This document shows, one piece after another, positions 4,883 through 40,425 of a DNA stretch of 64,000 bases; the stretch's first letter is position 1, and each line of letters starts with the position of its first letter. The position numbers were made by a program, and so were the translations under genes. The notes beneath the pieces were generated by a model. That model did no database searches. It had not been told where the DNA came from and saw only the letters and a program-made list of their open reading frames with translations. Location: the IMG/VR virus record IMGVR_UViG_3300045988_162372; one strand, given 5' to 3'. This stretch comes from a virus.

Positions 4883-5025
4883 AATAATATAAAATTACTT
4901 TGCTTTGCTTTATTTTAATATAAATATTAAAACGTAAACTTATAAATAACTAAATTGTACTTCTATTGATTCTATTTCTAAGACAATCGTAACGTTTTCA
5001 TTTGAAAAAAAAAAATCTCAAATCG

Positions 5026-5433: not shown

Positions 5434-5953
5434 TTAATTTTTCCAAAACATAATCAACAATTCTTTCAACTGATTTCTCATTTTTAACGCACTCGTAACT
5501 AATATCATACCTTTCAAGGATCGCCTTTACATCCTTATCAATTTGTTTTGCTTCATCAATAGTTTGTAGTCTTCCCTCAACCTGATAATCATTATTTCTT
5601 TCAATAAAGAATAATTTATTGTTGAAACGATTGTATTGTTCTATTATAAAATCATTAAAATAATCTGATTTTTCTTTATTATAATATATTGAAAGTAATA
5701 AAGGACTATCAGTTATAATAACATCTACTTTATCTTTTAAACGCCATATTTTATGGAATTGTTTGCCAAAAATATATATCTGGTCATCCATTGTCTTAAA
5801 TGATTCTTCCCAAACCTTATCTTTTGCAAATTCAAGAGCCATTTCGCAATTAATTCCTTTCTTTTTCAATTCGTAAAATACACCACTTGCAGTCGTTGAT
5901 TTCCCCGAACCTGGGCCACCAATTAGGTTAATAATCAATGTATTGTCTTTCAT
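5423..5953 (-). CDS. P-loop NTPase / nucleotide-kinase-like protein
   Basis: 176 aa with Walker A GGPGSGKST near the N-terminus. Confidence 0.6.
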   Translation of the reverse strand: MKDNTLIINLIGGPGSGKSTTASGVFYELKKKGINCEMALEFAKDKVWEESFKTMDDQIYIFGKQFHKIWRLKDKVDVIITDSPLLLSIYYNKEKSDYFNDFIIEQYNRFNNKLFFIERNNDYQVEGRLQTIDEAKQIDKDVKAILERYDISYECVKNEKSVERIVDYVLEKLNEK

Positions 5954-7945: not shown

Positions 7946-8811
7946 TTAATAATTCGTAATGAAGACCTCATCTGTACTTTTAGACTTGTTTTTTGCATGG
8001 TAACTGCAATTTCCGTAGCTATGATTAAAATGATGTACGTTATACTTCTTTGACCATTCAATCAACATTTCATTCTTGTTTCCCTTGTTTTCAAACACAT
8101 TGGATAAACCAAATCTTATTTCTCTTTCATTGAGATTATCCAATAATTCATATAATTGTCTCTCCTGTGTTTCATTCCATCCGTCCTGCTCATTGTATGA
8201 GGCACAAGTTATCAAATAAGGTGGGTCGCAATATACATAATCATCCTTTGACAACTTATCAACCTTTAATTCTGTGAAAGATTTATTTGTAAATATTACA
8301 TCTTTTATTGTCTTATGGAAATTAATCAGATTCTGTTCTATTGTCTTATTAAATTGACTTCTATTCTTTCCAAACGGCATGTTATATTCGCCTTTTGAAT
8401 TAAACCTTATCTGATGATTAAATGAGTAACATATCAAAACGAATAAGTCTATTGGATCTTTTTCTGTACTTTTATTATACATATTCCTGAAAACATTATA
8501 GCTTTCCTGATTATCTATTGTAAGATTATATTCCTCTATTTTGGAATATATTTCCTTTAAAATGTCATCAAGTGCCCTTGTCTGAAATGTCTTAAATATA
8601 TCAATAACTGACCCGTTAATGTCATTGGCTATACGTTTCTTGGCATTGACATTTGCAACTACATTTCCACCACCAGTAAATAAATCTACAAACGTATTTA
8701 TTTCATTTTTATGGGGGGGGGGAGTAAAATTATTGGTAATAGCTGTGGTAGCAATTTGTATTTTCCACCTGTGTAATTGAGTGGTGATTTAATCAATTTA
8801 TTTCCATCCAT
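7946..8811 (-). pseudogene. dam: Dam-type N6-adenine DNA methyltransferase, frameshifted at a G10 tract
   Basis: N-terminal frame from ATG 8811 reads MDGNKLIKSPLNYTGGKYKLLPQLLPIILLPPP and then hits a stop. One extra G would continue into HKNEINTFVDLFTGGGNV (AdoMet motif) and join ORF 7946-8482, which carries CDPPY. Confidence 0.7.
8713..8722. repeat. homopolymeric G10 (C10 on the coding strand) tract inside dam
   Basis: Counted directly: at gggggggggg ag. This is the frameshift site. Confidence 0.9.
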
Positions 8812-8829
8812 ATATTCTTTATTTTTCTG

Positions 8830-8837
8830 CAAAAATA
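8830..8837 (-). promoter_or_regulatory. Bacteroidetes -7 promoter box
   Basis: caaaaata, 19 nt upstream of the dam ATG at 8811. A second candidate box, caaatgta, lies at 8978-8985. Confidence 0.45.
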
Positions 8838-8877
8838 CAACAAGTTTTACTTATAAACAAATATACTATGTTAAACA

Positions 8878-8915
8878 AAATAAAAATACCACCGTATTTC
8901 ACAACAAAGTGGTAT
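8878..8915 (-). terminator. intrinsic terminator after the DGR RT
   Basis: - strand: ATACCAC...GTGGTAT (7-bp stem) followed by TTTTTATTTTG. Confidence 0.6.
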
Positions 8916-9026
8916 CATGATTTAGGCTTTTACCAAGTTCTAACAACAAAAGATATTTGACTATGCCTTTAATATTGCAAATGTACTACCTTTGTGTTAA
9001 ACTGCAAAATATTTTCTTGACTTTTT

Positions 9027-10232
9027 TCAATCTTTTATCTCAAAAACGTCTTTAGCAGTAACTTGTTTCGGCTTTTCTTTCCTGTTTATCTTTTCATATT
9101 TCTCATCAATAATTATCAAATCTTTCCATTTGTCAAGTAGACCTGAATTATTAAGAAAGAATTTCCTTATGTTGTAAGTGTTATAATGCTTCATATAACC
9201 AATATACGAGTTAACGGTCATTATAAGTTTATCCAATCTCTTTTCATCAGGATTATTGAATAAGTTTCTCAATTTATAATACAATGAACCTTTTGTTCTA
9301 TTCAAAACATATATTCTATTGGGTTTTATAACACTTCCAATAAACTGCACACCTTTTGTATAATGTTGAAAATATCTTTTATTTGGATGAATTGTCAATT
9401 TCAATTCCCTTTGGGCAAATTCAATTATCTTGTCCACCGAACTTTTCAATTTCTCTTTATCCGAGGATACTATCATAAAGTCATCAACATATCTGCCATA
9501 ATATTTAAAACCAAGCGTTTCCTTGATAAATCTATCGAGTTTTGTCAAAAAGAAATTGGCAAAAATCTGTGATGTCAAATTACCAATGGGTAGTCCTCTT
9601 TCATATCCTACATTAAACAAACTCTTATTGGAGTCTAATTTAGCCCATAACGACTGGTCACCTCTTTTCTCGCAATTTAATTCTGGATGATGTAGAACAA
9701 TCTGTTTGCATAATTCCCTAAGTTTCTCTTTCTTCCTATCATTTTCATAATATTCCACAATAAAATCGTCTATCATATCAGCCAATAACTGCTTATTAAT
9801 GCTCATAAAGAACGACTTTATATCCATCTTTAAAATCCAAGCATCCTTTGTATAATTCTCGGTACATTCCTTTATATACTCAAACATTGTTTTAACGCCA
9901 TACAATACACCCTTGCCCTCCATACACGAAAAGCTTTCTTTGATAAAATATTTTTCAAAATATGGCATTAATTCCTTGATGACAAGATGGTGTACAATTC
10001 TATCCCTGAAATCGGCAGCAAATACCTCACGATAAACTGGAAATGTAACAACAAATGCTATTGACTTACCAATTTCGTATGTTCCATCGTTAATATCATC
10101 ACATAAACGTGTGACTTTTTCTATATAGTCAATTTCGAACTCTCGTGCATTACTTGTATTTCTTTTGTTCTTAATACAATCTTCATACGCCTCGAAAACC
10201 TCACCGTAGCTAAAACAATATGCTTTTGCCAT
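9027..10232 (-). CDS. DGR reverse transcriptase
   Basis: 401 aa with YVDDF catalytic motif and the DGR-typical LPIGNLTSQ motif. It lies immediately downstream of a TR. Confidence 0.9.
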   Translation of the reverse strand: MAKAYCFSYGEVFEAYEDCIKNKRNTSNAREFEIDYIEKVTRLCDDINDGTYEIGKSIAFVVTFPVYREVFAADFRDRIVHHLVIKELMPYFEKYFIKESFSCMEGKGVLYGVKTMFEYIKECTENYTKDAWILKMDIKSFFMSINKQLLADMIDDFIVEYYENDRKKEKLRELCKQIVLHHPELNCEKRGDQSLWAKLDSNKSLFNVGYERGLPIGNLTSQIFANFFLTKLDRFIKETLGFKYYGRYVDDFMIVSSDKEKLKSSVDKIIEFAQRELKLTIHPNKRYFQHYTKGVQFIGSVIKPNRIYVLNRTKGSLYYKLRNLFNNPDEKRLDKLIMTVNSYIGYMKHYNTYNIRKFFLNNSGLLDKWKDLIIIDEKYEKINRKEKPKQVTAKDVFEIKD

Positions 10233-10270
10233 ATAGTGTTTATGAATTAATTATTTTATACATAAATAAA

Positions 10271-10295
10271 GGTTGGCTGTAAATTATAGCCAACC
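10271..10295 (-). other. hairpin in the TR-RT spacer (candidate DGR RNA spacer structure)
   Basis: ggttggct / agccaacc, an 8-bp stem with a 9-nt loop, between TR and the RT start. Confidence 0.5.
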
Positions 10296-10350
10296 AAATC
10301 ATCCTTTTTGGGGATTAATTTCTGTAAAAAAACAGCCTGTGCATTTTATA

Positions 10351-10475
10351 ATCAAAGGAAGGACGCACGTAATTGCTATTCCACTTATTGTTCCAATTGT
10401 TCAGATTCGCATTGTTCGTATTGCAATTCCAAGCATTCGTGGAGCTATTCTCGGCAGAAGCCCAGTAATTCGTAC
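10351..10475 (-). repeat. DGR template repeat (TR)
   Basis: 125 nt align without gaps to 11221-11345. All 21 mismatches are T on the + strand (A on the coding strand) in this copy. Its translation is Asn-rich (NSSTNAWNCNTNNANLNNWNNKWNSNYVRPSF). Confidence 0.9.
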
Positions 10476-10646
10476 ATTGTGCTATCTGGAATACATCAAT
10501 CAAGACATATTATTAACGACCCTTTCGAGCTGTGTAGCACCCTTATAAAATTTCGCCGAATGGGATTCGGTAATCTTTCACAAGCTTCGGTCTCTCCTGT
10601 TTGCATGATTTTCTAATCACTTAACGCAAAACAAAACTCTGCCTTT

Positions 10647-11036
10647 TCAATGATAAATAGTTTCTTGTTTTGAAAAATTTGCGGTTTTTTCGGTAAAACC
10701 TCTCCATTTTATGAATTGTTCATGTATATTTTTCATCAATGGGTAAATGTTGGAAAATTCCTTTGCACTTAATAGCTTTAAATCTATACATAATTTCATG
10801 CACAACTTTATATTCTCAAAATAACACTGGAATTGTTTCATATATTTTAATCTCTCTGACATATTCTCCGTAGTGTTAATTATGTTAATCAAAGACAACA
10901 TTCTAATTGCAGATCGTTTTGCTTCTTCACCAATTATATATTTATAAGATTTATTAATTTTATTTATTTTCGGTAATAATAATTTTACCATCTCATAGGA
11001 GTCAACAAAAATCTGTAGTTTTGTATAATGTCCCAT
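10647..11036 (-). CDS. avd: DGR accessory variability determinant (Avd-like four-helix-bundle protein)
   Basis: 129 aa, helical and basic, in the canonical position between target and TR. Confidence 0.7.
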   Translation of the reverse strand: MGHYTKLQIFVDSYEMVKLLLPKINKINKSYKYIIGEEAKRSAIRMLSLINIINTTENMSERLKYMKQFQCYFENIKLCMKLCIDLKLLSAKEFSNIYPLMKNIHEQFIKWRGFTEKTANFSKQETIYH

Positions 11037-11084
11037 AATACTTGTTTCATTTTTTATTTTTATTATTTATGTGGAAATTAAAAG

Positions 11085-11115
11085 TTCTATGCGCTCGCTA
11101 CACTCACGCATAGAA
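11085..11115 (-). other. hairpin between the DGR target and avd
   Basis: ttctatgcg / cgcatagaa, a 9-bp stem with a 13-nt loop. Confidence 0.5.
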
Positions 11116-11138
11116 ACTTCAGCCTTTCATTACAATTA

Positions 11139-11162
11139 ATTGTGGGGATTTATCCCCACAAT
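11139..11162 (-). other. near-perfect palindrome/hairpin 43 nt downstream of the target stop (terminator and/or DGR homing-associated hairpin)
   Basis: attgtggggat tt atccccacaat, an 11-nt inverted repeat. Confidence 0.6.
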
Positions 11163-11205
11163 AAACAAGCGTTGCTTGCTAAATACGCTTAAGGCTAATA
11201 GAGGC

Positions 11206-13848
11206 TTAATCAGCCTCAATAGCAAAGGAAGGACGCACGTAATAGCTACCCCACTTAATGCCCCAAAAGCCCAGAAGCGCATAGTTCGTACCGCAATGCC
11301 AAGCATACGTGGAGCTACCCTCGGCAGAAGCCCAGTAAGTCGTACCATCTCTCATTGGATAGCAATTTCCTGTAGTATAACCACCTTCACCTGCAATAAT
11401 CTTATCACATGCTTTCTTTATAAGATACATTTGAGTAAATTGATCCCATAAATCTGCTCCGTCAGGTAAGAAACAACGTTTATTGGCAACACTACCAGAA
11501 CCGTGTGATGTAAGATTGTACATATTTACGAATTCCACTGCATCATACTTATCAGTACCAGTCTTCAAGTAGCCACTTTCTGCTGTATATGTCGCCATAC
11601 TTTTATCTACACGCCAATCATTGATAGCCTTTGTATATGCTTCACCATTATAACGAGTGGTATTTCTAGTTGCTGTTGCACCTTCTTCATCCCATGTAAA
11701 TTTATTGTAGCCAACTTCTACATTTGATGTATTGGTAATCGTTGTGATATCCTCAGCATTTACTTGTCCATTCGTCCACTGTCTTGTAGTGTCGTTTAAT
11801 ACAGTTGCATAAATCTTATGAACCGCACCACCCGCATCACTTGCAACTACGTTGCCAGCACCATTTGCAATAGTCGGTGTTGAAACAGTAGGATTAATAT
11901 AAGTATCTGCATACACAATACCAATGGGTACATTACTTGAACTATATTTATAGTCTTTAGGATCTACCATCGTGTTATCGGCAAGAACAATTGCACCAAC
12001 TTTACCTTCAGAGAATTTTCTGTTGCCATCACCTCCTAATTCAAGACAAACAGTATTATTATCGGAAAGATTTGTTTTTGCAAAAGCACCATACCATCTT
12101 TGAATACCTTCATAAGTATTCCAATCAGGATTAGCTTCTGGAAGAGCAGATGCAAGTGCTGTACATCCGCCAAAAATGCCTCTTGCATTAGCAACCTTCA
12201 AGTTTGCAAGACAAGTTGCAGGAATTGAAGTAAGACTTGTGCAGTTACCAAACATTCTTTCCATCATAAGGTTTTTACCAGTCATTGCTTCAAGCAATCC
12301 ACTAGGAATTGAAGTAATACCGCTACCATAGAAAGCATCTCTACAGTTAATATTATCTGACTTGATATTATAGAAAGCATCAGAAGCAAATCCTGTAATA
12401 CCCTTACAGTTGTAGAAAGCCTGTCTCATATCAGTTAATTTACTTAAACCTCCAATAAATTCTCTATCAACTGTACCAGTGATCGATGTACAACCATAGA
12501 ATAAACGATATATAGTCGTTACATTAGGACAATCAGCGAACAAATCAGATGAAATCTCACCATTCATTTTTGAACAATTTGCAAATACTTCTGACGCATT
12601 CGTAAGTGCTGTTAACCCTGCAAACATTCCAGTAGGTATTGAGCCAGTCATATTGGTATTATAAGCAAACATACCTGCTACGGTTGTTACGTTAGGACAA
12701 CCATCAATTATTTTAATAGGTATAGGCTCTGTTAATCCTGTGCAATCTCTAAAAGTATAAGAAAAGTCTGTTGCTTTTTCACATCCACTAAACAATCCTT
12801 TATTAGTATTTGCATTAAACGGCAAACTCTTTAATGAAGTACATTTTCTAAATGCATATGAAAAACTGGTAACATCAATGAACGAGTTAGTAGTGTCATA
12901 CATAGGGATATCAGCTAGTTTACTACATCCTCTAAATGCTGATTCCATATTTGTAAGCAATGTATTACCCCACGCAATAACAGCAATTAAATAATTTCTC
13001 ATTGCATAATTGTCACTATTAACGATATTAGTACCATCAGAATCCTGAACATATTCACCATCTTCAACCCAATTGGATTGATCATCGCCTTGTGTATAAA
13101 TTCTCTTGTAAGTACCATTGATAGTTACGTCATATACACCTGCACTTGCATAAGTATGCCAAATAGCTGCTTTATTATCAGCATAAGATTTTGCTTCATC
13201 AAAAATGCATTCAGGACTACCATCACCCCAGTCAACCGTATAACTATAAGTTGCTGTTGTACTTGGTTCAAAACTACCATCATCGCCGACTGACATTGTT
13301 GAGATACCGCTCTCTGTAACGCTATAGCCTAAATTTTCAGCAGCAGCTATGAATTCAGCAGCTTCTTCTTCCGAAAGATAATTATCAATATCATTCATAG
13401 GAATAGTAAAGTTACCATCCATGATGGTATTCCCATATACATCCTGAATTAAATGTTCACTATAATCTGGCTCATTATCTACAGGTTCTGCTGTATCGCC
13501 AGGATTTAAGTCCATAGTTGCAGGATCCATAGCAATAAGTTCTTTTGCAATCGTATTTAACGTTGCACCATTGTTACCTGCTACACCAAACTGCATAGGA
13601 AGTACAACTGTACGTTTGTATGTCGTTGTAGCTTCTGGAATTTGGAATTCCAACACCATAGCGTTGGCACTTTTCAAACGTCTGATAAGTTCTGCATAAC
13701 GGGCAAATGTTTCCGTATCACTCACATTAGTAATACCATTAAAACGCAACGCATTTGCAATATCTTCTTTTGAGCTTGCAATATTTGCCTTTGCACCTTC
13801 AAGCTCCTGATATACAGCTTCAAGTTTTGTTTTTATTACGTTCGACAT
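11206..13848 (-). CDS. DGR target: putative receptor-binding/tail-fibre protein with BspA-type leucine-rich repeats and a C-terminal variable lectin-like domain
   Basis: 880 aa. The central part has repeated F..C..L..I/P units (FRGCSKLADIP, FRKCTSLKSLP, FGNCTSLTSIP). The C-terminus ...YWASAEGSSTYAWHCGTNYALLGFWGIKWGSYYVRPSF is encoded by the VR. Confidence 0.85.
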   Translation of the reverse strand: MSNVIKTKLEAVYQELEGAKANIASSKEDIANALRFNGITNVSDTETFARYAELIRRLKSANAMVLEFQIPEATTTYKRTVVLPMQFGVAGNNGATLNTIAKELIAMDPATMDLNPGDTAEPVDNEPDYSEHLIQDVYGNTIMDGNFTIPMNDIDNYLSEEEAAEFIAAAENLGYSVTESGISTMSVGDDGSFEPSTTATYSYTVDWGDGSPECIFDEAKSYADNKAAIWHTYASAGVYDVTINGTYKRIYTQGDDQSNWVEDGEYVQDSDGTNIVNSDNYAMRNYLIAVIAWGNTLLTNMESAFRGCSKLADIPMYDTTNSFIDVTSFSYAFRKCTSLKSLPFNANTNKGLFSGCEKATDFSYTFRDCTGLTEPIPIKIIDGCPNVTTVAGMFAYNTNMTGSIPTGMFAGLTALTNASEVFANCSKMNGEISSDLFADCPNVTTIYRLFYGCTSITGTVDREFIGGLSKLTDMRQAFYNCKGITGFASDAFYNIKSDNINCRDAFYGSGITSIPSGLLEAMTGKNLMMERMFGNCTSLTSIPATCLANLKVANARGIFGGCTALASALPEANPDWNTYEGIQRWYGAFAKTNLSDNNTVCLELGGDGNRKFSEGKVGAIVLADNTMVDPKDYKYSSSNVPIGIVYADTYINPTVSTPTIANGAGNVVASDAGGAVHKIYATVLNDTTRQWTNGQVNAEDITTITNTSNVEVGYNKFTWDEEGATATRNTTRYNGEAYTKAINDWRVDKSMATYTAESGYLKTGTDKYDAVEFVNMYNLTSHGSGSVANKRCFLPDGADLWDQFTQMYLIKKACDKIIAGEGGYTTGNCYPMRDGTTYWASAEGSSTYAWHCGTNYALLGFWGIKWGSYYVRPSFAIEAD
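11221..11345 (-). repeat. DGR variable repeat (VR)
   Basis: It ends 12 nt before the target stop codon. The 3' 23 nt (11221-11243 region, acgtgcgtccttcctttg on the - strand) are identical to the TR and GC-rich, like an IMH (initiation of mutagenic homing) element. Confidence 0.9.
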
Positions 13849-13890
13849 AATTTGATAAAAATCTATTGTTATTATGTTATTATTTTATAA

Positions 13891-14478
13891 TTAGATGGTT
13901 AATTGAGAATGTATCTCTTGCGCACGAGGCATCAATGTGCCATCAATATAAGATATTGCTTCATTGATTTCTTGCTCAACAGCACCTACTCTATTCTCCA
14001 ACGCTTGCAGGTTTTCGATTGCGCCACCAGTCATCTCGCTGATTTTCTGATTAAGCACAATACCTTGTGCGGCAGACAATGCAACATCACTTGAATTGGT
14101 TGTAAGGTTGTTAGCGACACCACCATTAGCTGCATTGTTTAATTTTGTATCCAGTTCTGCCTGTTGTGCGGTAGAAATAGGTTTGTCTACGTCTGATGTG
14201 TTATCCACATTCCCAAGACCAACTTGTTCTTTGGTCACACCGTGAGGATTGTCATTACGTGCTTCATGCATAGCAAGAGATTCGCCGATTGTCTGCATCA
14301 TACCGTTTATCAATACACTTACTACTTCATCATCGGCATTCTTTGTGGATAGTGTTTCAACACCAGAAGCGTAGTTGATAGCAATCTCACCATAATTCAA
14401 TTGGTCTGCGGTAGGTATTTTAGGATTTCCATCCTCAAGTACTACATTGCTTCGTTTGTTTAAAACTGTTCTACTCAT
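13891..14478 (-). CDS. tail-fibre-associated protein
   Basis: 195 aa. NPHGVTKEQVGLGNVDNTSDVDKPISTAQQ is the common phage tail-fibre repeat motif. Confidence 0.6.
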   Translation of the reverse strand: MSRTVLNKRSNVVLEDGNPKIPTADQLNYGEIAINYASGVETLSTKNADDEVVSVLINGMMQTIGESLAMHEARNDNPHGVTKEQVGLGNVDNTSDVDKPISTAQQAELDTKLNNAANGGVANNLTTNSSDVALSAAQGIVLNQKISEMTGGAIENLQALENRVGAVEQEINEAISYIDGTLMPRAQEIHSQLTI

Positions 14479-14514
14479 TGATTACTTTTGATTTTTAATA
14501 AATTAGATTATTTT

Positions 14515-14862
14515 TTAGACATTATCTTCACACCATTTGATACGTGCCTCTAATGCACTTGTATCTTGTGCTTGCCAAGCATCTATTGTATTATTCATTG
14601 AATAGCCTTGTGCCGCACTCCACGGAACTTGTGATAGATCAATACTCTGGCTTTCCTCTGTGGAATTGTAGATGTCAGAGATGTCCATTTTCTTTGATAG
14701 TGCCTCAGACAATGCTGTGGAAATAGGTTTGTTTGCGTCTGCAACATTCTCAACCTTGTCCAGACCCCATATTTGTGCGTTTGTTACCTCATGAGGATTA
14801 CTTGCAGCAATATGGGCATCATACTGTGTTTTTAATTCGTTAGGGTTTAATGGCATTTCCAC
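14515..14862 (-). CDS. tail-fibre-associated protein
   Basis: 115 aa carrying the same motif in variant form: NPHEVTNAQIWGLDKVENVADANKPISTAL. Confidence 0.55.
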   Translation of the reverse strand: MEMPLNPNELKTQYDAHIAASNPHEVTNAQIWGLDKVENVADANKPISTALSEALSKKMDISDIYNSTEESQSIDLSQVPWSAAQGYSMNNTIDAWQAQDTSALEARIKWCEDNV

Positions 14863-15331
14863 TTTTTTTAATTGTTATTATTCATAAGATTTCTCTTTTT
14901 CATCTAATTTCGGCACAAAAATAGAAAGAACCAACAAACTATTATATGCCTTCTATGAATTAATAGTCTATCAGCCTTTGCAATTTATATGGAGGTACGA
15001 ATGCCATTCCATATTTATATGCCGTCATGTATGAAACTGGTAATAACCACATAAGACTGATAATAATCAATCATTCATATATAAATATTGTGTTTTGACG
15101 AGAAATAATCAAGAAATCTTATAAAATATTCGTTTATTTTTTTAGTAACAATGAGTAATTCCAAGCATCAATAATATAATATTTTCAAGTAACTGATTAT
15201 ACATTAACGCTTTCTCACAATATTTATATTTCAGTTCAATATATTTGATATATAATTTCTCTTTAAGCATATATTTTCTTTTATTCTTTTCTATTATTAT
15301 ATACTTCACAATGTCTATTTTCAATAGTAAC

Positions 15332-15400: not shown

Positions 15401-15607
15401 TTATCTATTGTCATTCATCCATTTAATTGACTTATAGAGTTCGTTTATTGTCTTATCCTTAAAATGACTTTTTGAACTGATTTCTTTTATTAAACCCAGT
15501 ACCGTATCATTATGTGGATTATTCTTGTAGATTTTCTTGATTATATACTTTCGTTTCTCATCTGTCGTTTTCATATTTTCTTTTTTTCTATTTAATTTCT
15601 GTGCCAA
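15401..15607 (-). CDS. hypothetical protein
   Basis: 68 aa basic ORF. An alternative start is at 15574. Confidence 0.4.
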   Translation of the reverse strand: MAQKLNRKKENMKTTDEKRKYIIKKIYKNNPHNDTVLGLIKEISSKSHFKDKTINELYKSIKWMNDNR

Positions 15608-16469
15608 ATTCTATTGCTTTTGCATAAACCTCATCATTTTTCAAGTCAATATCCCCAATGGATGCCATACAATCCTTGAGAATGGTCATTTTCTTGCATA
15701 TCTCAGGCTTGTATGTAACAATATCCTTGATACTCTCCTTTACACAAAAGTCAGTTGCCACACCACAAATATAGACTTTATCATATGTGTTTAATTTATC
15801 TAACAATTGGGTATTCAAAGTGGTATCATTTGTTTCATTCTTAAATTCTACTGGCGCATAGAAATCACCTTCCACTTTCTTTGAAAGTATTTCTTCAGAT
15901 ATATTGCCTATTGTTGGAATGTTTGTTGTTTCAAGAATATAAGGTGTATATATGCATCCATCCGCTACGCTATATCCTGCCAATGGGATTTCTGCTTTGA
16001 ATATTGAATAATGTTCTGTATAAGGATTTGTTCCTTTCTTAATATATTCCACATTATCTTTATTCTCCAAAACTTTCTTTAACTCATTACATATTTCACA
16101 TCCCCATGTGTTTTCTACGCAATGTGGAGGCCATGCAATCAATTTTTTACCTTTTTTCTCCAATTCTTTCAGGTAAGCAATAAGATATGCCTTATAATAA
16201 TGCGCTCGTACTTTTTTGCTTAACACATCATCCAATGTTATCTCGGTAAACGGTTCAACGTGCTTGTTCTCGCTATCATACCAAAACTCCGTACTTGCAA
16301 TATTATTCTTTGGATGATAATCCCTTGAAACAAATATCTTATCAACATCATTCTCTTTTAGAAAATTTGCAATATTTTTTGCTACCTTATCTCCATTGGG
16401 AACACAAAGACTTCCATTTTTATGAATGAAGTCATTCTGCATATCAATTATGACAATTGCTGTTTTCAT
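15588..16469 (-). CDS. pncA: nicotinamidase / isochorismatase-family hydrolase
   Basis: 293 aa. VIIDMQNDF, DYHP, WPPHCV and ICGVATDFCV match the PncA catalytic pattern (Asp, Lys, Cys). Confidence 0.7.
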   Translation of the reverse strand: MKTAIVIIDMQNDFIHKNGSLCVPNGDKVAKNIANFLKENDVDKIFVSRDYHPKNNIASTEFWYDSENKHVEPFTEITLDDVLSKKVRAHYYKAYLIAYLKELEKKGKKLIAWPPHCVENTWGCEICNELKKVLENKDNVEYIKKGTNPYTEHYSIFKAEIPLAGYSVADGCIYTPYILETTNIPTIGNISEEILSKKVEGDFYAPVEFKNETNDTTLNTQLLDKLNTYDKVYICGVATDFCVKESIKDIVTYKPEICKKMTILKDCMASIGDIDLKNDEVYAKAIEFGTEIK

Positions 16470-21542: not shown

Positions 21543-22604
21543 TCAAATTAATGCACTATCATACTCATTTACAACATCAAAAGCTTGTCTGAACTCTTTC
21601 ACTCTATCCATTTCATCGCAATGTGTAAGTTCAAGTTCAAATTTATATCCTTTAGCATCATTGTTTATCCTATTTTTTAAGGATGAGATGTCTAATTTGC
21701 CATATCTAAAAATACCTTGATTTTCATTATAATGGTTTGTCCTATCCTCTTTTATATCTTTTGATAACTCTTGTCTTTGCGTATGATTTTCCATCTCACC
21801 ATCACCGTGCCTAGTAAGATACGGTCTGGTTACATAATGCGCTGTAACTTCTTCAACGTTCTTAATTTGTTTTACTATTTCCAAAGAATATGCTATACCA
21901 GTATTAGACGGCGTAGTATCAGCAGTATCTTTCCCTGTATCAGAAAGTAATAATCCTTGACCATTTTCAAAGATTAAGTTCTCATATTCAAGAGTGTCAA
22001 TAGGCTGTACAATTGTTTTCTCTTTCATGAAATAACAATCATTGATAAAATGCTTTTGCAGAACTACAGAATTCCAAATAGGTAGCCATGCGCCTCTTAT
22101 CGTCAATTCTTTCTCATAGTATGCCTTAACCTTATTAAGATAGGCTATCTTATCGTCTAACCTAATGAACTCATCAAATAATAAATTTAACCCACTATTC
22201 CATCTTCTTATAGTATTCCAGATTCCCATTCCACAAGAAGCCTTTCTTTTTCTTTGCTGTTCAGAAATAAGGTTTGCCAACGCATCATAAGGAGTTGACC
22301 ATCTACATCTTGCATCCCTATATATGCGTTTTGGCTTTACAATGAGTGAATTGTATTCATTCACAAATTGGATAGGGTTAAGAATAAAAAAGCAAGAATA
22401 ATAATTGTCAGCACCGTAATATGTTCCAGCTCCAAAATGTTGGAATGTAATATTTCCATCTTCTGTTAATATAGAATGCCCCCTTTGAGAACCCCCATTA
22501 GTAAGGACATTCAATACATTGTTAGAACACTTACTATATCTTGCAACTACAGTACCTTTACCTTCATCACCATAATTTGCTCCAATTACTATCCTTGCTT
22601 TCAT
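21543..22604 (-). CDS. short adenylosuccinate-synthetase-family enzyme (PurA/PurZ-like)
   Basis: 353 aa. GDEGKG P-loop, GGSQRGH (compare GGxNAGH) and FENGQGLLL (compare FEGAQG). About 80 aa shorter than bacterial PurA. Confidence 0.65.
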   Translation of the reverse strand: MKARIVIGANYGDEGKGTVVARYSKCSNNVLNVLTNGGSQRGHSILTEDGNITFQHFGAGTYYGADNYYSCFFILNPIQFVNEYNSLIVKPKRIYRDARCRWSTPYDALANLISEQQRKRKASCGMGIWNTIRRWNSGLNLLFDEFIRLDDKIAYLNKVKAYYEKELTIRGAWLPIWNSVVLQKHFINDCYFMKEKTIVQPIDTLEYENLIFENGQGLLLSDTGKDTADTTPSNTGIAYSLEIVKQIKNVEEVTAHYVTRPYLTRHGDGEMENHTQRQELSKDIKEDRTNHYNENQGIFRYGKLDISSLKNRINNDAKGYKFELELTHCDEMDRVKEFRQAFDVVNEYDSALI

Positions 22605-25120: not shown

Positions 25121-25288
25121 TCACTTTTTCTTCTTAATTATAGGAAGATTGCCTTGTCTTTTATAATAACACAGATCACACATATTCCTTGCAACTGTCA
25201 TTCTATATCCTCGAATACTATAATAAGTGTTTGTTACATTGCATATAGGGCATTTCCATGCTTTGTGACAATAATCATTTCTTATCAT
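25121..25288 (-). CDS. small zinc-ribbon protein (55 aa)
   Basis: Hand-translated MIRNDYCHKAWKCPICNVTNTYYSIRGYRMTVARNMCDLCYYKRQGNLPIIKKKK. Overlaps the cca stop by 14 nt and is below the track cutoff. Confidence 0.4.
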   Translation of the reverse strand: MIRNDYCHKAWKCPICNVTNTYYSIRGYRMTVARNMCDLCYYKRQGNLPIIKKKK

Positions 25289-26672
25289 TTTTAAATTGTT
25301 TAATTTTATTCAATAATTCTTCCTTTGTTATCTTTGGATTGACAAACGCAAATTTCATTAGCCAATACAAACATTCCTTAACCTTTGCGCAGGGTTCAAT
25401 TCCTAACGCTTTCATTACATCATTGCCATTTACAGGTAATTTATAGTTTCCCATGCTCATACCTTCCTTCTTAAACTCTTCCAAACGTTTAATAATATTC
25501 TCTACCTGACTTGGCATACAATATTCAGGACTATGAGCATTGTTATCAGCATCAATCAATTCAAGGCACTTCATCATATTGTCCCCAAGTTCATATTGCA
25601 TTTTCCTGAGTGTCTTGTCTTTCATATGGTTACAATTATCCCCAAAGTTTTTCGTTCTCATGTGGTTTTTAACCAAAATCTGCACTGTTTTAATGAAATC
25701 ATTGGAATACTTCAAACGTCTGAGAATTGTATCGCACATCTCAGCAGAAACAAGTTCATGCTTATAGAAATGTACATTGCCATTATCATCAACAGTTCTT
25801 GTCTTGATTTTACCGATATCATGCAATAATGCTGCCATACGAAGTTGCAAATCATTCCTTGTATTCTCAACAACTTTCAATGTATGTTCCCAAACATCTC
25901 CAAAATGGTACTTGTTTTGACTGAGATTATAAGTTTTTTCCAATTCAGGAATAACATATTTCATTGCACCAATGTCTTTTATAAGGTTCAATGCCATTAC
26001 AGGATTATCGCAAACAAGCATTTTATTAAATTCATCTTGAATACGTTCTTTGGTAATAATTGAAAGTCTATCCACATTTCTTTTCATACCCTCAAAGGTT
26101 TCTTTCTCTATTTTCCATCCATAACGACTTGAGAAACGACACACCCTAAGTATCCTTAAAGGATCATCCAAAAATATCACGTCGGGTTCACTTGTTGTTC
26201 TAATTATATGATTTTTAATGTCACTATAACCCCTATCAGTTAAATCCAAATATACATTCTTTGAGATATCATAATACAAGGAATTAATTGTTAAATCTCT
26301 CCGTTTGCAATCCTCTTCAATACTTCCAAATACAACTTCTGGATTACGACTATTTTTATCCTTATATTGTTCCTTTCTTGTCTGCACAACTTCCAATTCA
26401 ATATCAGGAAACGCCGCCAATTGAAACATTGCAGTACCGTATGTAGGATATACAACTGGTTCATGTGTGAGCAACTTTTCTTTATATAACCAATTGGCAA
26501 AGTCAATACCTCCATCAGGCAAATCAATACAAAGGTCAATATCTTTTATTTCGTGTCCTAAAATCTCATCACGGACACATCCACCAACTGCAAAACAGTG
26601 GTTTTCAAACAAAGTGCCTTCAATAATGTCTTGAAGATAATCACATATCTGTATGTATAATTCGTGTGCCAT
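25275..26672 (-). CDS. cca: tRNA nucleotidyltransferase (CCA-adding enzyme) with HD domain
   Basis: 465 aa. GGCVRDEILG...DIDL polymerase-beta head motif and LLHDIGK HD motif. Confidence 0.8.
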   Translation of the reverse strand: MAHELYIQICDYLQDIIEGTLFENHCFAVGGCVRDEILGHEIKDIDLCIDLPDGGIDFANWLYKEKLLTHEPVVYPTYGTAMFQLAAFPDIELEVVQTRKEQYKDKNSRNPEVVFGSIEEDCKRRDLTINSLYYDISKNVYLDLTDRGYSDIKNHIIRTTSEPDVIFLDDPLRILRVCRFSSRYGWKIEKETFEGMKRNVDRLSIITKERIQDEFNKMLVCDNPVMALNLIKDIGAMKYVIPELEKTYNLSQNKYHFGDVWEHTLKVVENTRNDLQLRMAALLHDIGKIKTRTVDDNGNVHFYKHELVSAEMCDTILRRLKYSNDFIKTVQILVKNHMRTKNFGDNCNHMKDKTLRKMQYELGDNMMKCLELIDADNNAHSPEYCMPSQVENIIKRLEEFKKEGMSMGNYKLPVNGNDVMKALGIEPCAKVKECLYWLMKFAFVNPKITKEELLNKIKQFKNDKK

Positions 26673-27565: not shown

Positions 27566-28897
27566 CTATTTCAATTTTAATTGTTCTTTTCTGATGTTGA
27601 TCAGCAAATCATTTACAAATTCAACGTCAATATCTTCTGGGAGAGTAGATGCAGCAATAGCTTCATCCATTACCTTTTTACGTTCATCAAGCATTGATAT
27701 TACTTCATCATACTCATACTTATGATTTTTTACATCAAGCAAAAATTCTCTATCTATTCCACGTCTATTAACTATGAAACCCTTACCTTGTGCAATCTCC
27801 GTACACATTGCAATAAGTCTGAAAGCATGTGATACATTCTTCGCATCATAATTTTTATTCAAATTGCTTTCATAACGTACTGGATTACGATGTTTTTCCC
27901 AATCTTTATAATCCCGATAATCAATACAATGCTTCTGATAACCTGTCTGATTGTAACTAACCCAACAGATAGGTTTTTCTCCTTTTGAAACAGAGGAAAG
28001 GCGTAGTTCGTTAGACATTCCATCTTCACCTACCATTCCTTTGTAACCAATAGGTATTTGCTTATTGTACCAATTACACAATTGTAAAACATTATGTATA
28101 TCATAAAAATCTCTAATGAAATCCACCAAATTACAGAGCTGTTTTATACGATATTTACGAAGTAAATCCTCATTTTCCCCACTTCCTTTTATTTCAGCAA
28201 CAATATCTTTCATTTCATATTTGTATATTTCATTATAAGCGTTGTCTTTCTGAAAGATATTACTCAAAGTAAGTAAATCTATTTCTTCATTTAAAAAGAA
28301 ATTTCCCCAATCATAGTAACATCCATACACGTCATGCATATTCGGAATATTCACAAGTCCGCAATATTGCTGTTTCAACCCTCTATGTTCCAACCAATTT
28401 TTAATGTTGCTACTACCTTGATTGTAAAAGGTATAAACAAAATCAAGAGGCTCAAGACGTTTTGTTACTGGGTTTACAATCTTCTTATTCAAACCTCTAC
28501 ACTTGCGTATTTGTTCAACCGCATATCCCCCAAAAGGTTTAAAGCATTGCTTGGTTATGAATTTATCCCTATATTTCTTAAGCTCTGTCATAATGGGATG
28601 TTCATATAATACTGCATTTCCATCCGCAAACAATGCTTCGAGAACAGTGGGGTTACTCTTAAGTAAAAGTAACATGAATTTGTTTAACTCATACCACATA
28701 ATATCATTAGTTTCATTATGTATCTCACTTTGATAATCCAATCCTAGACCAATAAGTTGCTCTGCTGGTGCTAAGTATACGCCTCCATAGTCTTCATCGG
28801 AAGATGGTGTACTAAGACCATATAAATGTGAACCTCTGCGGAACTCATATAACAATAAACCTTGTTTTTTAATGTCTTCAAATGTATATTTCTTCAT
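27566..28897 (-). CDS. RlaP-like nucleotidyltransferase (RNA-repair-associated pol-beta family)
   Basis: 443 aa. The N-terminal RGSHLYGLSTPSSDEDYGGVY matches the predicted nucleotidyltransferase (RlaP) signature as I remember it. Confidence 0.55.
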   Translation of the reverse strand: MKKYTFEDIKKQGLLLYEFRRGSHLYGLSTPSSDEDYGGVYLAPAEQLIGLGLDYQSEIHNETNDIMWYELNKFMLLLLKSNPTVLEALFADGNAVLYEHPIMTELKKYRDKFITKQCFKPFGGYAVEQIRKCRGLNKKIVNPVTKRLEPLDFVYTFYNQGSSNIKNWLEHRGLKQQYCGLVNIPNMHDVYGCYYDWGNFFLNEEIDLLTLSNIFQKDNAYNEIYKYEMKDIVAEIKGSGENEDLLRKYRIKQLCNLVDFIRDFYDIHNVLQLCNWYNKQIPIGYKGMVGEDGMSNELRLSSVSKGEKPICWVSYNQTGYQKHCIDYRDYKDWEKHRNPVRYESNLNKNYDAKNVSHAFRLIAMCTEIAQGKGFIVNRRGIDREFLLDVKNHKYEYDEVISMLDERKKVMDEAIAASTLPEDIDVEFVNDLLINIRKEQLKLK

Positions 28898-31339: not shown

Positions 31340-32413
31340 TCACTTCTTAAAGAAGAGAACTACTCTATTCCAATTGTTTTCCGTGTATGGCTGTTCAGCA
31401 TCGCCAATGCCTTCAGTTTCAATTCTATTAGCGTCAATACCGAATGTGTTTACCAATACTTTCTTAACAGATTCTGCTCTCTTGGTAGACAACATTTTAT
31501 TATAAGAGGTTGAACCAGTTTTCTTATCTGCATAACCTTTCAAAACAATGTTAAGTGTAGTATCGTTCTTCATCGCTTCTGCAATGCAGCTAAGATTTGC
31601 CATCTGTACCTCGTCAACCTTGTATTTGTTGATTTGGAAGGAAACGACATTGGGAAGCGTAGGAGAAACGTCTTTGGTACTGATATAAACAGTATCATGT
31701 ACTGCCTTTGCTTTTTCAAGACTATCAGCCAAAGATTGATTAGCTGCTCGTAAATCATTAATCTTCCGATTCAACGCATTATATTCAACAGGATCAATTA
31801 CATTGACAAACTTGAAATTATGTGTGCCATTTGAATTCTTAAATTTGTAAGTTACACCAACTGATAAACTAACATATGAATGATCAATCGCTTTATCAGG
31901 AAGATAGGTATATGCAGGAATAATATTTAATTGCCAAGCCTTCTTTTTATCGAAGTTCCAATTAATTTCTACGCCGCCTTTTACAGCTACACTATTGCTG
32001 ACATAATCATAGGTATGAAACCATCCTGTACCAAGTACACCAACAAACTCCCAATTTCTCGGCTCTCCCCTATATCCGCCAAATATATTTGAGAAGTTAA
32101 ACAAAGCGTCAACTCCGAGCATTGTATGGTCTACAACTGTCTTCCCCAACTCGGAGAAACCTCCTTCCAATTCAATCTGCGCTCCGATATTAGGATTGAA
32201 ATATTTTCCAAATTTAATCGTTGCCATCGGATTGATGTTGGGCCAAAATGCATTAGTCTGGTGATGATTTTGCAAAGACCAACTTCCGCCTCCATAAACG
32301 CCAATAAAAGCGTTGTCATACCATTTACTGTCTTTAACATCTGTCTGCAAGGTCTGCGCATTTACATTCATACACAGAATTGCTGAAAGAAACAAAAACA
32401 AAATCTTCTTCAT
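31340..32413 (-). CDS. OmpA-family outer-membrane protein with signal peptide
   Basis: 357 aa. Signal MKKILFLFLSAILCMNVNA and a C-terminal OmpA-like domain (LKGYADKKTGSTSYNKMLSTKRAESV...NRVV). Confidence 0.7.
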   Translation of the reverse strand: MKKILFLFLSAILCMNVNAQTLQTDVKDSKWYDNAFIGVYGGGSWSLQNHHQTNAFWPNINPMATIKFGKYFNPNIGAQIELEGGFSELGKTVVDHTMLGVDALFNFSNIFGGYRGEPRNWEFVGVLGTGWFHTYDYVSNSVAVKGGVEINWNFDKKKAWQLNIIPAYTYLPDKAIDHSYVSLSVGVTYKFKNSNGTHNFKFVNVIDPVEYNALNRKINDLRAANQSLADSLEKAKAVHDTVYISTKDVSPTLPNVVSFQINKYKVDEVQMANLSCIAEAMKNDTTLNIVLKGYADKKTGSTSYNKMLSTKRAESVKKVLVNTFGIDANRIETEGIGDAEQPYTENNWNRVVLFFKK

Positions 32414-35164: not shown

Positions 35165-35230
35165 ATTGCACGTTTTATTTTGAAAAAGTTATCCCTACCT
35201 TTGTCATGATAGGGATAACCGTATAAATAA

Positions 35231-36037
35231 TCATTTCTTTATCTTGCTTAAATCCAAAAATGTGGAAGTATTTCCACCAGTAATAACTGTTGGTACTGTT
35301 CCATTCCATTTATCTATCCACATTTGTTGTAGGATTTGTGGAGTTAAGGCTTGCGACTTCAATTCATTGGCTTCCTTTTCTGCTCTTGCCTTTACTAATA
35401 CCTTCTCGGCTTCTGCTTTAACGACTTCCAGCTCGTTTTGCGCTCTTTGGGCTTCTTGAATAGCTGCTGTTTTAGCTGTTACTGCATCCACAATTGACTG
35501 AGGATATTTCAATCCCGATGTTAACTGCTCCAATTGAAAATTTTCTTTACTAAGTGATGCAGATAAATAACTCTCAATAGCTTTTTCGATGCTATCCCTG
35601 TGACTTACAATATAATCAGTCGTAAATGTATTTAATTGTATTCTAAAAGCATCTTTAATATAGTTATAAAGTGTTGTATTTATCACTTCCTTTAAATCCT
35701 TTCTATATTTCTTAAATATCTGAGGTGATTTACCGTCTATGATTTTTAAAGATACTGTAGGATCCACAATAAATTCAGAACCATCTTGTGCATTAATATT
35801 GAATGGTTCATAATCTATTGTTTGAACGTAAGCAGGATATTCATATATCTCAGTTGTTATTGGATTATACCATATAGTTCCAGTTACTAAAGAAACATCA
35901 TCTACTCCCTTGTTCGAACCATACTTATTTACCTTAATTCCCTCATAACCTGCGTCGACACGTTCATAACAGGAACTCAAACTTGCCGTCATTAAAACAG
36001 CACAAATCAAATACAAAATTTTTTTCAATTTCAACAT
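35231..36037 (-). CDS. SPFH/band-7 (prohibitin-like) lipoprotein
   Basis: Start placed at MLKLKKILYLICAVLMTASLSSC (lipobox). The body and C-terminal coiled coil (AQRAQNELEVVKAEAEKVLVKARAEKEA) are typical of SPFH proteins. Confidence 0.6.
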   Translation of the reverse strand: MLKLKKILYLICAVLMTASLSSCYERVDAGYEGIKVNKYGSNKGVDDVSLVTGTIWYNPITTEIYEYPAYVQTIDYEPFNINAQDGSEFIVDPTVSLKIIDGKSPQIFKKYRKDLKEVINTTLYNYIKDAFRIQLNTFTTDYIVSHRDSIEKAIESYLSASLSKENFQLEQLTSGLKYPQSIVDAVTAKTAAIQEAQRAQNELEVVKAEAEKVLVKARAEKEANELKSQALTPQILQQMWIDKWNGTVPTVITGGNTSTFLDLSKIKK

Positions 36038-36069
36038 AATGATAAAACTATTAAAGTTAAAAATAATAT

Positions 36070-36276
36070 TTATTCTTCTTTTCTCCACAAATTTCTTATA
36101 TTAAGAAAACATCTTGTTTTATAAGATACAAATAACATTATCACCATCAAAAATATACCAACAATATTTTCAATTGTATTTGCTGCTGTTATCATCGACA
36201 ATCCACTATTGATCACAAACAATAGTATAATAACCCACACTACAAATAGCAATACGTCTAAAAACTTAATCTTCAT
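36070..36276 (-). CDS. small membrane protein
   Basis: 68 aa with two hydrophobic segments. A further 42-aa membrane ORF lies at 36266-36394. Confidence 0.4.
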   Translation of the reverse strand: MKIKFLDVLLFVVWVIILLFVINSGLSMITAANTIENIVGIFLMVIMLFVSYKTRCFLNIRNLWRKEE

Positions 36277-36409
36277 CTTCGTTTTTTCCTTTCTTTAATT
36301 TTCCTTGTTTATAGTACAAATAATCCCTAAACATCCAATATGTGTAATAACATATTACCCAAACGCAAACAATACATGCAATACATAACCACATAATTCT
36401 CAAAATATA

Positions 36410-36925
36410 TTAGTTTGCCAAATGTCTTTTACTCACAATACCTTCCATTACCGAGTCATTTCCATCTATTGCATAATCAACATCTTTGTTGTATTCAAAT
36501 GGAGGTCTTTCATATAAGAAGCAAACGCTTGTTAAAATACCATCCAATGATGTTTCCCTAAAACTACCATAAGGTATATGATATCGCTGCAATATTCTTT
36601 CTACTCCTTTTAAATCCTTGCTGTCACTGGCATTGAGAATGACTATTGTTTTATTATATTTTGCCCACGCATCATATAGCTCAGACTGTTCTTGATTTTG
36701 TAATTGATATTCCACAATTGAATGTGCTGCTTGTATTCCTTTTTGTATCGGACTTAATTGTTTCAAAACAATGCAGTACATCTTTAATAAATCTACTTGT
36801 ATATCTACGTCCATCTCTGTATTATATATGATTTTAAATTTTGCTTTTAATTTCTTTTGTTTATCAACCTTTTCTAACCCGATATTCTTTAAATCCACTA
36901 TGCATATATCTTCACATTGTGTCAT
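36410..36925 (-). CDS. peptidyl-tRNA hydrolase PTH2-like protein
   Basis: 171 aa. LSPIQKGIQAAHS...KTIVILNASDSKDL...LTSVCFL resembles the PTH2 fold pattern (GK.AAQ.AH ... KVVL). Tentative. Confidence 0.4.
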   Translation of the reverse strand: MTQCEDICIVDLKNIGLEKVDKQKKLKAKFKIIYNTEMDVDIQVDLLKMYCIVLKQLSPIQKGIQAAHSIVEYQLQNQEQSELYDAWAKYNKTIVILNASDSKDLKGVERILQRYHIPYGSFRETSLDGILTSVCFLYERPPFEYNKDVDYAIDGNDSVMEGIVSKRHLAN

Positions 36926-36966
36926 TTAAAAATTAAACATTTAACTCTCTTATTATTTTAACACTG

Positions 36967-36974
36967 CAAAGATA
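36967..36974 (-). promoter_or_regulatory. Bacteroidetes -7 promoter box
   Basis: caaagata, 42 nt upstream of the 36925 start. Confidence 0.55.
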
Positions 36975-37052
36975 CAACAAAAATTTCATACTTGCAAGCG
37001 AATTAATATAATTTTATAGATATTTATCATTATAGATGATATTATTGAAAAT

Positions 37053-39354: not shown

Positions 39355-39403
39355 ATTGCTTTATTAGTAAGTTAAATAATAAAATTCAGTAATTTATAAA
39401 ATG

Positions 39404-39985: not shown

Positions 39986-40418
39986 TTCTTTTCAATAATT
40001 TTTGATAAAAAATCAAATGAGTTTCATGTGTCCTACTCTCTAACTCTTTATATGTCATCCATCTATATCTATCAATTTCAGGGGTTTTACCATCTTCTGT
40101 AAAATTTGAATGACATTCGTTAGGGTCGATATTAGGGTATTCTAAACCAAAGGCAATTGCTGTCTTTCTTGGATTTTGAAGAACACTTCCAAGAGGTATT
40201 AAATAGCTACTTTGGCAATCTTTCATCGAAAGACCAGTTTCTTCTTTAAATTCTCTTATTGCGGCATCCACCCAATGTTCATCTCCTTCTGTACCACCCT
40301 TTAGAAACGCCCAATAATCAATGTTTTTCCATCTTTCGCCTCCTGGATGTCCTACAAAGAACTCCATCTCATTGTTTTTATTCACTCTAAAAGGAATGAT
40401 TCCTGCTGAATATTTCAT
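39966..40418 (-). CDS. NUDIX hydrolase
   Basis: 150 aa with NUDIX box GGTEGDEHWVDAAIREFKEETGL. Confidence 0.8.
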   Translation of the reverse strand: MKYSAGIIPFRVNKNNEMEFFVGHPGGERWKNIDYWAFLKGGTEGDEHWVDAAIREFKEETGLSMKDCQSSYLIPLGSVLQNPRKTAIAFGLEYPNIDPNECHSNFTEDGKTPEIDRYRWMTYKELESRTHETHLIFYQKLLKRNEDYNK

Positions 40419-40425
40419 ATATTAT

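Follow-up and report, generated by a model that had tools for sequence, protein, structure and literature searches.

What is the repeat-bearing cassette on the minus strand at positions 9027-13848 of the virus record IMGVR_UViG_3300045988_162372 (IMG/VR), does it diversify a protein, and what would that protein do? An earlier reading of the same DNA (here called the original prediction) took it to be a complete, apparently active diversity-generating retroelement (DGR) aimed at a tail-fiber-like protein. We analyzed the whole stretch of 64,000 nucleotides (nt), referred to below as the window; all coordinates are those of the window. The best explanation, and very probably the right one, is that the cassette is a functional DGR of the kind known from Bordetella phage BPP-1 and from Bacteroides phages, carried by a huge (>350 kb) gut phage. 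Every open reading frame (ORF) at 9 to 14 kb lies on the minus strand, as do both repeats, and the order target, avd, template repeat, reverse transcriptase, described as canonical at the outset, is the same as in BPP-1. The parts of the cassette, in the direction of its coding strand, are as follows.

11206..13848, minus strand: target gene, 880 aa; DUF285, phrog_9915, and Lcl_C by profile and AlphaFold2/Foldseek
11221..11345, minus strand: variable repeat (VR), codons 835-876 of the target
11223..11242, minus strand: constant 3' end of the VR resembling an initiation-of-mutagenic-homing site (IMH), TTACGTGCGTCCTTCCTTTG; TR counterpart at 10353-10372
11194..11222, minus strand: 29-nt flank 3' of the TR homology, containing the hairpin GAGGCT-N5-AGCCTC
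11139..11162, minus strand: 10-bp hairpin with a 4-nt loop between target and avd; stem ATTGTGGGGA / TCCCCACAAT
10647..11036, minus strand: avd (accessory variability determinant), 129 aa, pI 9.5; phrog_3206
10476..10646, minus strand: avd-TR intergenic segment, presumed 5' part of the DGR RNA, a function we infer
10351..10475, minus strand: template repeat (TR), 39 A, 14 AAY codons; its 3' constant, IMH*-like segment is 10353-10372
10233..10350, minus strand: TR-RT spacer, presumed 3' part of the DGR RNA, 118 nt, with an 8-bp hairpin at 10271-10295
9027..10232, minus strand: DGR reverse transcriptase (RT), 401 aa, intact; RVT_1, phrog_1423

The signature of mutagenic retrohoming is carried by the repeat pair. 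A repeat finder returned a single long direct repeat of 123 nt (10353-10475 and 11223-11345, offset 870), and on the coding strand TR 10351-10475 and VR 11221-11345 align without gaps over 125 nt with 21 mismatches. All 21 fall on TR adenines (A>G 10, A>T 7, A>C 4), in agreement with the claim of a strictly adenine-specific divergence; given 39 A in 125 nt, the probability of such an outcome by chance is P = 1.7e-13 (hypergeometric). One of the 21 has to be set apart from that claim. At the 3'-most mismatch, TR A 10352 faces VR C 11222, and C occupies this position in 10/10 distinct VRs, including VRs of another target gene; it is therefore a fixed difference at the IMH versus IMH* boundary and not a product of mutagenesis, which leaves 20 real A-to-N changes. 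When translated in the target reading frame, the TR is as rich in AAY (Asn) codons as had been noted; its adenines lie mostly in those 14 codons and occupy codon position 1 (20 cases) or 2 (19 cases) and never position 3, a placement that is maximal for amino acid diversity without stop codons. The VR ends four codons short of the end of the 880-codon target, which bears out the proposed location in the last ∼42 residues. A scan of the 64-kb window found no second VR.

The enzyme beside these repeats belongs, by its sequence, among the DGR RTs. Its intact ORF carries the motifs named in the original prediction, IGNLTSQ (at residue 216) and YVDD (at 248), corresponding to the [I/L/V]GxxxSQ motif-4 signature and the catalytic YxDD. 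It matches RVT_1 at 1.5e-19 (Pfam), and profile search places it in phrog_1423 at 1.3e-81, a family common to BPP-1 Brt (1.9e-125) and the Bacuni_F1 RT (1.1e-63). The top match in the Protein Data Bank (PDB) is 8ub7 (E = 5.8e-26, 94.8 bits), whose chain is BPP-1 Brt as judged by a 103-aa stretch 100% identical to brt of Bordetella phage BPP-1; the second, a group II intron RT, reaches 8e-9 and 38.4 bits. Its closest relatives among GenBank phages are the RTs of Bacteroides uniformis phages F2, F4, and Bacuni_F1 (45-48% identity over 92% of the length). Avd falls in phrog_3206, "Avd protein of DGR," at 4.9e-13, together with BPP-1 Bbp7/Avd (8.8e-29) and the Bacuni_F1 Avd; a search of Avd against PDB sequences gave no match. 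Megablast of 8500-14500 against GenBank phages returned no match.

To follow the element between samples, we compared the window with six contigs (L001 to L006), each from a separate sample and all encoding an RT protein identical to that of the window; this protein is indexed in 90 blocks of a public assembly collection, in contigs of up to 364 kb. The TRs of the six are the same as the window TR or one base off, and every VR is different, with the differences at TR-A positions. Over the 4,822 nt that run from the start of the target gene to the stop of the RT gene, L001 departs from the window at 20 positions; a 127-nt VR stretch accounts for 19, all at A sites. When 10 distinct VRs were each compared with the cognate TR, or with the window TR where no cognate was at hand, 191 differences were A-to-N (A>G 83, A>T 74, A>C 34) and 18 were of other kinds. 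Two point variants of the TR are mirrored in the cognate VRs: T>G at position 19, present in the TRs of L003 and L005, appears as G in 2/2 cognate VRs, and T>C at position 58, present in the TRs of L002, L004, and L006, appears as C in 3/3. This mirroring shows that information passes from TR to VR. In an alignment of 21 target proteins (15 listed members of a 42-member 90%-identity cluster plus the 6 loci), mean column entropy is 0.885 for the VR block and does not exceed 0.27 in any other part; it is the AAY positions that vary. Judged between samples, the DGR is evidently intact and diversifying, as had been supposed from one copy: each contig has its own VR, and a near-isogenic pair differs almost only there.

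The noncoding parts of the cassette behave as parts of a working system would. Among seven strains, 3/118 columns vary in the TR-RT spacer, 1/169 in the avd-TR intergenic segment, and 2/127 in the TR, and the target outside the VR (11348-13848) varies in 22% of columns versus 1-2% in avd, TR, and RT; near-invariant noncoding segments beside a variable target body fit a functional DGR RNA and a fast-evolving target. To judge from the divergence of the target body, the repeat scaffold may be subject to recombinational exchange or to diversifying selection besides DGR mutagenesis. The spacer (fold z-score -1.8) may have a role in priming.

The 3' boundary of the exchange can be narrowed by comparing target loci. 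The last 20 nt of the repeat, TTACGTGCGTCCTTCCTTTG, are the same in TR and VR and locally G+C-rich, and their single A is unchanged in 10/10 distinct VRs. Beyond them, the flank at 11194-11222 contains the 6-bp hairpin GAGGCT-GATTA-AGCCTC (11201-11217), which spans the target stop codon; across strains its stem is kept, apart from one mismatch in contig L011, and its loop reads GATTA, GTTTA, or AATTA. In related phages, an unrelated gene of 346 aa also has the 29-nt flank, 3' of its VR and with one substitution per locus; past the flank the two target loci diverge. The second hairpin, the 10-bp one at 11139-11162, is part of a 11100-11230 DNA fold with z = -5.4; its stem is preserved and its loop changes in seven strains, and it is absent 3' of the second-target VRs. 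Both hairpins lie 3' of the VR and not of the TR. Because the flank recurs at the second target and the 10-bp hairpin does not, we take the IMH together with the 29-nt flank as the likely recognition element; the 10-bp hairpin is more likely a terminator of the target gene than a DGR cruciform. A scan for sigma-70 promoters and terminators did no better than on shuffled sequences, which is expected if the host is a member of the Bacteroidota, with different promoters.

By analogy with BPP-1, an RNA over the avd-TR-spacer region would be transcribed, and a complex of RT and Avd would reverse transcribe its TR part, placing random nucleotides opposite template adenines. The cDNA would then replace the VR at the 3' end of the 880-aa target gene, with the 3' boundary probably set by the IMH at 11223-11242 plus the ∼29-nt target-specific flank and its small hairpin. 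The outcome could be up to ∼3e16 amino acid combinations on the ligand-binding face of an Lcl_C/DUF1566 domain, which would be displayed on a scaffold of DUF285 leucine-rich-type repeats.

This picture of the product derives from the layout of the target, in which an N-terminal part of no assigned type is followed by DUF285 repeats (∼295-600) and a predicted Lcl_C/DUF1566 domain containing the VR (∼730-880). Pfam gives a weak PKD-like match, under cut-off, at ∼190-245, and the N-terminus has a weak Dit_N match (E = 0.045). The repeats had been described as BspA-type leucine-rich repeats, a label that we replace: at ∼360-483 they score as DUF285 (5.3e-12, 46 bits versus a cut-off of 25), whereas LRR_5, the BspA-type family, reaches 19.5 bits against a cut-off of 27.7. 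Residues 295-570 belong to phrog_9915, a family to which no function is assigned (2.2e-42).

The variable domain was approached through its relatives. Homologs of the target C-terminus include the 346-aa family, which carries Lcl_C (PF07603, formerly DUF1566), and 30/41 members of the C-terminal alignment match Lcl_C. A profile built from the last 151 aa and relatives drew 2,006 representative proteins at E <= 0.001, and in a sample of these, 10/10 were above the Lcl_C gathering threshold in the matched region (36.8-76.8 versus 34.9 bits). Searches of PDB sequences with the target (phmmer) and with profiles of the C-terminal alignment found nothing real. When AlphaFold was given the C-terminal 275 aa and a shallow alignment of 41 sequences, the predicted local distance difference test (pLDDT) score was 56, and below 40 in the VR part; the Foldseek result for that model was meaningless, and the model was superseded. 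The model of the C-terminal 151 aa with 50 diverse domain sequences reached pLDDT 86 and a predicted template modeling score (pTM) of 0.81. Its top Foldseek match in PDB is the C-terminal domain of Legionella Lcl (8q4e, probability 1.00), and it also matches invasin/intimin and the Bacteroides ovatus pilus-tip protein BACOVA_04982 (4eps), a known type of DGR target. Among viral structures (BFVD), the best matches are DUF1566 phage proteins and one annotated tail fiber protein. Profile search and structure prediction agree with the C-type-lectin/DUF1566-like domain of the original prediction, and they support the assignment of the variable domain to Lcl_C with a predicted C-type-lectin-like fold. 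The target would accordingly belong to the DUF1566/CLec2 class of DGR targets (category d, PMC5758913).

Several observations count against parts of this interpretation. Avd matches both Pfam bAvd (8e-6) and NCBIfam DivGenRetAVD (1.8e-7) below the curated cut-offs. The N-terminal 295 aa of the target have no match in GenBank phages, its C-terminal 275 aa have no direct Pfam match even at E <= 10, and the Foldseek E-values are modest (0.04 in PDB, 0.004 in BFVD). The cassette sits among metabolic and DNA-modification genes and outside any recognizable tail module. The VR of L005 departs from its own TR by four non-A differences, so that the resident TR does not explain every VR. The evidence for activity comes from comparison between samples, and the differences could have built up over a long time.

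These points bear first on what the target is for. From its context, the 880-aa protein may be a virion fiber or adhesin whose diversification would serve host or ligand recognition. Two small genes with tail-fiber repeats, whose presence just upstream had been predicted, are indeed found there:

13891..14478, minus strand: tail-fiber-repeat protein directly upstream of the target, 195 aa; Phage_fiber_rpt at 1.7e-6, 28 bits versus a cut-off of 27; many tail-fiber PHROGs
14515..14862, minus strand: second tail-fiber-repeat protein, 115 aa; tail-fiber PHROGs down to 2.5e-6, no Pfam match

Alternatively, the DGR is active and its target is a nonvirion protein that acts inside or on the infected cell, or else an adhesin that binds nonhost ligands (mucus glycans, for instance, or other surfaces). 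This is a serious possibility, to which we give well under even chances. The same-strand pair of tail-fiber-repeat genes, the BFVD match annotated as a tail fiber protein, and the fact that most phage DGR targets characterized so far are tail proteins (PMC8144416) all speak for a fiber; the closest solved folds, on the other hand, are those of adhesins (Lcl, the pilus-tip protein, and invasin/intimin), and the 346-aa second target of related strains has no fiber features. The N-terminal 295 aa without a phage homolog, and a position outside any recognizable structural module, next to isochorismatase-family, Dam methyltransferase, HAD phosphatase, and AAA_28 genes, likewise favor a nonfiber role. 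The tail-fiber-like, receptor-binding character claimed for the target has its support in those two small upstream genes and draws none from the N-terminus or the wider neighborhood.

In related phages, the 346-aa Lcl_C/DUF1566 family, a second DGR target, occurs at L010:10001-11041 and L011:7966-9006, each copy ending in a VR that matches the present TR at 83/87 (L010) and 78/87 (L011) non-A positions. In L010 the gene stands between sigma-70 and DUF4326 genes; the window has in that slot (∼35165-37052) a PTH2-like 171-aa gene, a 68-aa gene, and a Band_7 285-aa gene instead, and in other contigs the syntenic slot is empty (L017) or holds an extra 331-aa gene (L023). A degenerate, truncated 188-aa copy of the family is present in the 367-kb contig L012. 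In L010, a gene of 401 aa close to the second target was checked as a candidate RT and is not one. The clade thus has nonadjacent DGR targets, and the window has the adjacent one only. Related loci were found mainly by exact-protein look-up, which was far more productive than exact-pattern scans for the VR flank (0 matches in viral contigs, 1 in metagenome contigs); a word-indexed homolog search with the domain profile returned close relatives only.

The four non-A differences between the L005 VR (4886-5012) and its own TR (5756-5882) recur in the L011 VR (8865-8991) of the 346-aa gene. Another TR allele, past or present, is implied by these shared variants; the L005 VR would then owe its sequence either to homing in trans or to recombination. 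More speculatively, the DGR might be a trans-acting diversifier of movable accessory genes, in which a portable module of ∼42 codons plus IMH plus 29-nt hairpin flank is homed upon in trans during coinfection and which, together with a poly-C-switched Dam gene (described below), forms a "programmed variation island" combining two hypervariation mechanisms. The portable-module reading is suggested by the presence of the VR end and flank on at least two otherwise unrelated genes (880-aa DUF285 and 346-aa Lcl_C), the latter in different accessory slots. We consider this scheme as a whole rather unlikely.

A different concern is that the element is a DGR by descent that is now inactive, its VR differences being old polymorphism spread by recombination among cocirculating strains. 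Recombination at the locus is made plausible by the 22% variable columns of the target body; it would import flanks, however, and between the window and L001 there is 1 difference in ∼4,700 nt outside the VR against 19/127 inside, all at A sites. The TR variants are mirrored in the cognate VRs, and the RT, Avd, TR, and flanking noncoding RNA regions are intact and strongly conserved. The second-target relic in L012 and the non-A differences of the L005 VR point in the direction of decay or exchange, and the activity data compare samples with one another. On balance, we regard inactivity as very improbable. An ordinary partial gene duplication beside an unrelated RT (of a group II intron, a retron, or a defense system) with an accidental A bias is already refuted, for the best-named NCBIfam matches of the RT do bear such names but are all far under their cut-offs (group II intron maturase 85 bits, cut-off 300; retron St85 66, cut-off 235; Drt3a 59, cut-off 200), an Rfam scan of 8400-15000 found no family and hence no intron or retron RNA, the A-only pattern is improbable by chance and is repeated in 10 independent VRs, and an Avd gene is present.

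A functional DGR, then, is the reading to be compared with known systems. In BPP-1 (mtd-avd-TR-brt), the order is the same, with the VR at the 3' end of the target followed by avd, the TR, a spacer in the ∼120-145-nt range, and the RT, and RT and Avd belong to the same PHROG families as here. Also alike are the adenine-only mutagenesis, the AAY-rich TR, the constant G+C-rich 3' segment in TR and VR, and a hairpin 3' of the VR only. The 144-nt BPP-1 spacer corresponds in position to our 118-nt spacer. The BPP-1 RT has 328 aa versus 401 aa here, with only local similarity, and its TR abuts avd, whereas 169 nt separate avd and TR here. Its variable domain is a C-type lectin (CLec) of Mtd type, unlike the Lcl_C/DUF1566 domain (CLec2 class of Wu et al., PMC5758913) found here; its target, Mtd, has 381 aa, whereas ours is a monomer-sized 880-aa repeat protein; and the present phage genome is ∼8 times larger.

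The Bacteroides uniformis phages Bacuni F1, F2, and F4 (PMC8143477) share the order of a DUF1566 target, avd, TR, and RT and have the closest RTs among GenBank phages. Their VR encodes the last 35-42 residues, and near-isogenic phages differ almost only in the VR (PMC8143477); they also have a second, distant target gene, as do related strains of the present phage. They are, however, 40-kb siphoviruses of 51% G+C with 253-aa pilus-tip-like targets, compared with >350 kb, ∼32% G+C, and a target fused to DUF285 repeats here, and their TR lies ∼40 nt from the RT start, against a spacer of 118 nt. In the Legionella pneumophila DGR with LdtA (DUF1566, category d, CLec2), the VR likewise lies in a DUF1566/Lcl_C-type domain, but that system is a cellular DGR acting on a lipoprotein target, with no phage context and no leucine-rich-repeat-type scaffold. 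The mechanism is thus already known, and DGRs are very common in gut phages, an RT plus a TR-VR pair having been found in about a third of high-quality genomes (85.7% of 25,620 of 79,250; PMC8241571). The present element is a further canonical, intact case, and the points that distinguish it are the huge-phage genome, the fusion of DUF285 repeats to an Lcl_C variable domain, and unusually clean natural evidence of TR-to-VR transfer.

The surroundings of the cassette identify its carrier as a huge gut phage of >350 kb. Related contigs with the same genes measure 270-367 kb. All genes of the window lie on one strand, and its G+C content is ∼32%. A tRNA array at 49816-57606 (minus strand) holds 21 genes for 19 amino acids, with Gly and Pro twice, no Val, and no suppressor; large tRNA arrays are typical of huge phages. 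A cell-like gene cluster lies within 37934-47491 (minus strand). Its members, and other genes of the window with recognizable products, are as follows.

45371-47491, minus strand: FtsH-like AAA/M41 protease
42835-44766, minus strand: HSP70/DnaK, ∼50% identical to those of Lak and other 540-735-kb phages
40426-41547, minus strand: DnaJ
39966-40418, minus strand: NUDIX protein
38809-39354, minus strand: translation initiation factor IF3
37934-38812, minus strand: sigma-70 factor
31340-32413, minus strand: OmpA-domain protein with a signal-peptide-like N-terminus
27566-28897, minus strand: RlaP-type nucleotidyltransferase (RNA-repair pathway)
25275-26672, minus strand: CCA-adding tRNA nucleotidyltransferase
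15588-16469, minus strand: isochorismatase/nicotinamidase-family protein

These features invite comparison with the Jug (jumbo gut) phages, which have genomes of 360-402 kb and predicted Bacteroides/Phocaeicola hosts (PMC12363816). The related contigs (351-367 kb) resemble them in size, low G+C content, gut origin, frequent homing-endonuclease and insertion sequence (IS) insertions, and a large tRNA array, a likeness that falls short of confirmed identity. The paper on the Jug phages mentions neither a DGR nor a reverse transcriptase (PMC12363816).

Just downstream of the RT, a D12-class (Dam) N6-adenine methyltransferase is encoded at 8483-8811 and continues into the ORF at 7946-8482 (minus strand). 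The gene is split by a run of 10 C (8713-8722), the sole G/C homopolymer of at least 8 in the 64-kb window. With 10 C, as in the window, L001, and L005 to L008, the first 33 codons do not share a frame with the S-adenosylmethionine-binding FxGxG motif and the DPPY part; with 11 C, as in L003 and L004, the gene is an intact 288-aa ORF. In L002 there are 13 C, and the body of the gene is replaced by a resolvase plus TnpB (IS607-like) element (L002:7851-9696). The tract looks like that of a phase-variable (contingency) methyltransferase, the alternative being an assembly error in the homopolymer. A LAGLIDADG endonuclease gene is present in L003 and L005 at ∼9023-10007, and another TnpB lies at L022:4-1152. 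These strain-specific insertions, near the DGR and at other sites, mark hot spots for mobile elements in a genome that is highly conserved in other respects.

Farther away, 21543-22604 (minus strand) encodes a divergent adenylosuccinate-synthetase-like protein of 353 aa that keeps the GDEGKG loop. Its best PHROG is phrog_1211, "2-aminooxy adenylosuccinate synthetase" (PurZ-like), at 1.7e-35; it is far under the NCBIfam PurA cut-offs and has relatives of ∼30% identity in Mycobacterium, Rhizobium, and Vibrio phages. A genome containing the Z base (2-aminoadenine), which the PurZ-like label might suggest, was considered and found no support: in PDB the protein is closest to cellular PurA (7e-8) and matches no structure of PurZ.

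Taken at its most probable, the cassette documents an intact, diversifying DGR in a prevalent clade of >350-kb gut phages; if that clade is the Jug phages, their recent description did not mention a DGR. It also offers a clean natural example of TR-to-VR transfer, in which VRs repeat single-nucleotide variants of the TR and two near-isogenic sequences are set apart almost entirely by their VRs. The 880-aa DUF285/Lcl_C protein is the likeliest ligand-recognition determinant of these phages. Since no host has been shown in culture for them, the protein provides a handle for work on their host range.

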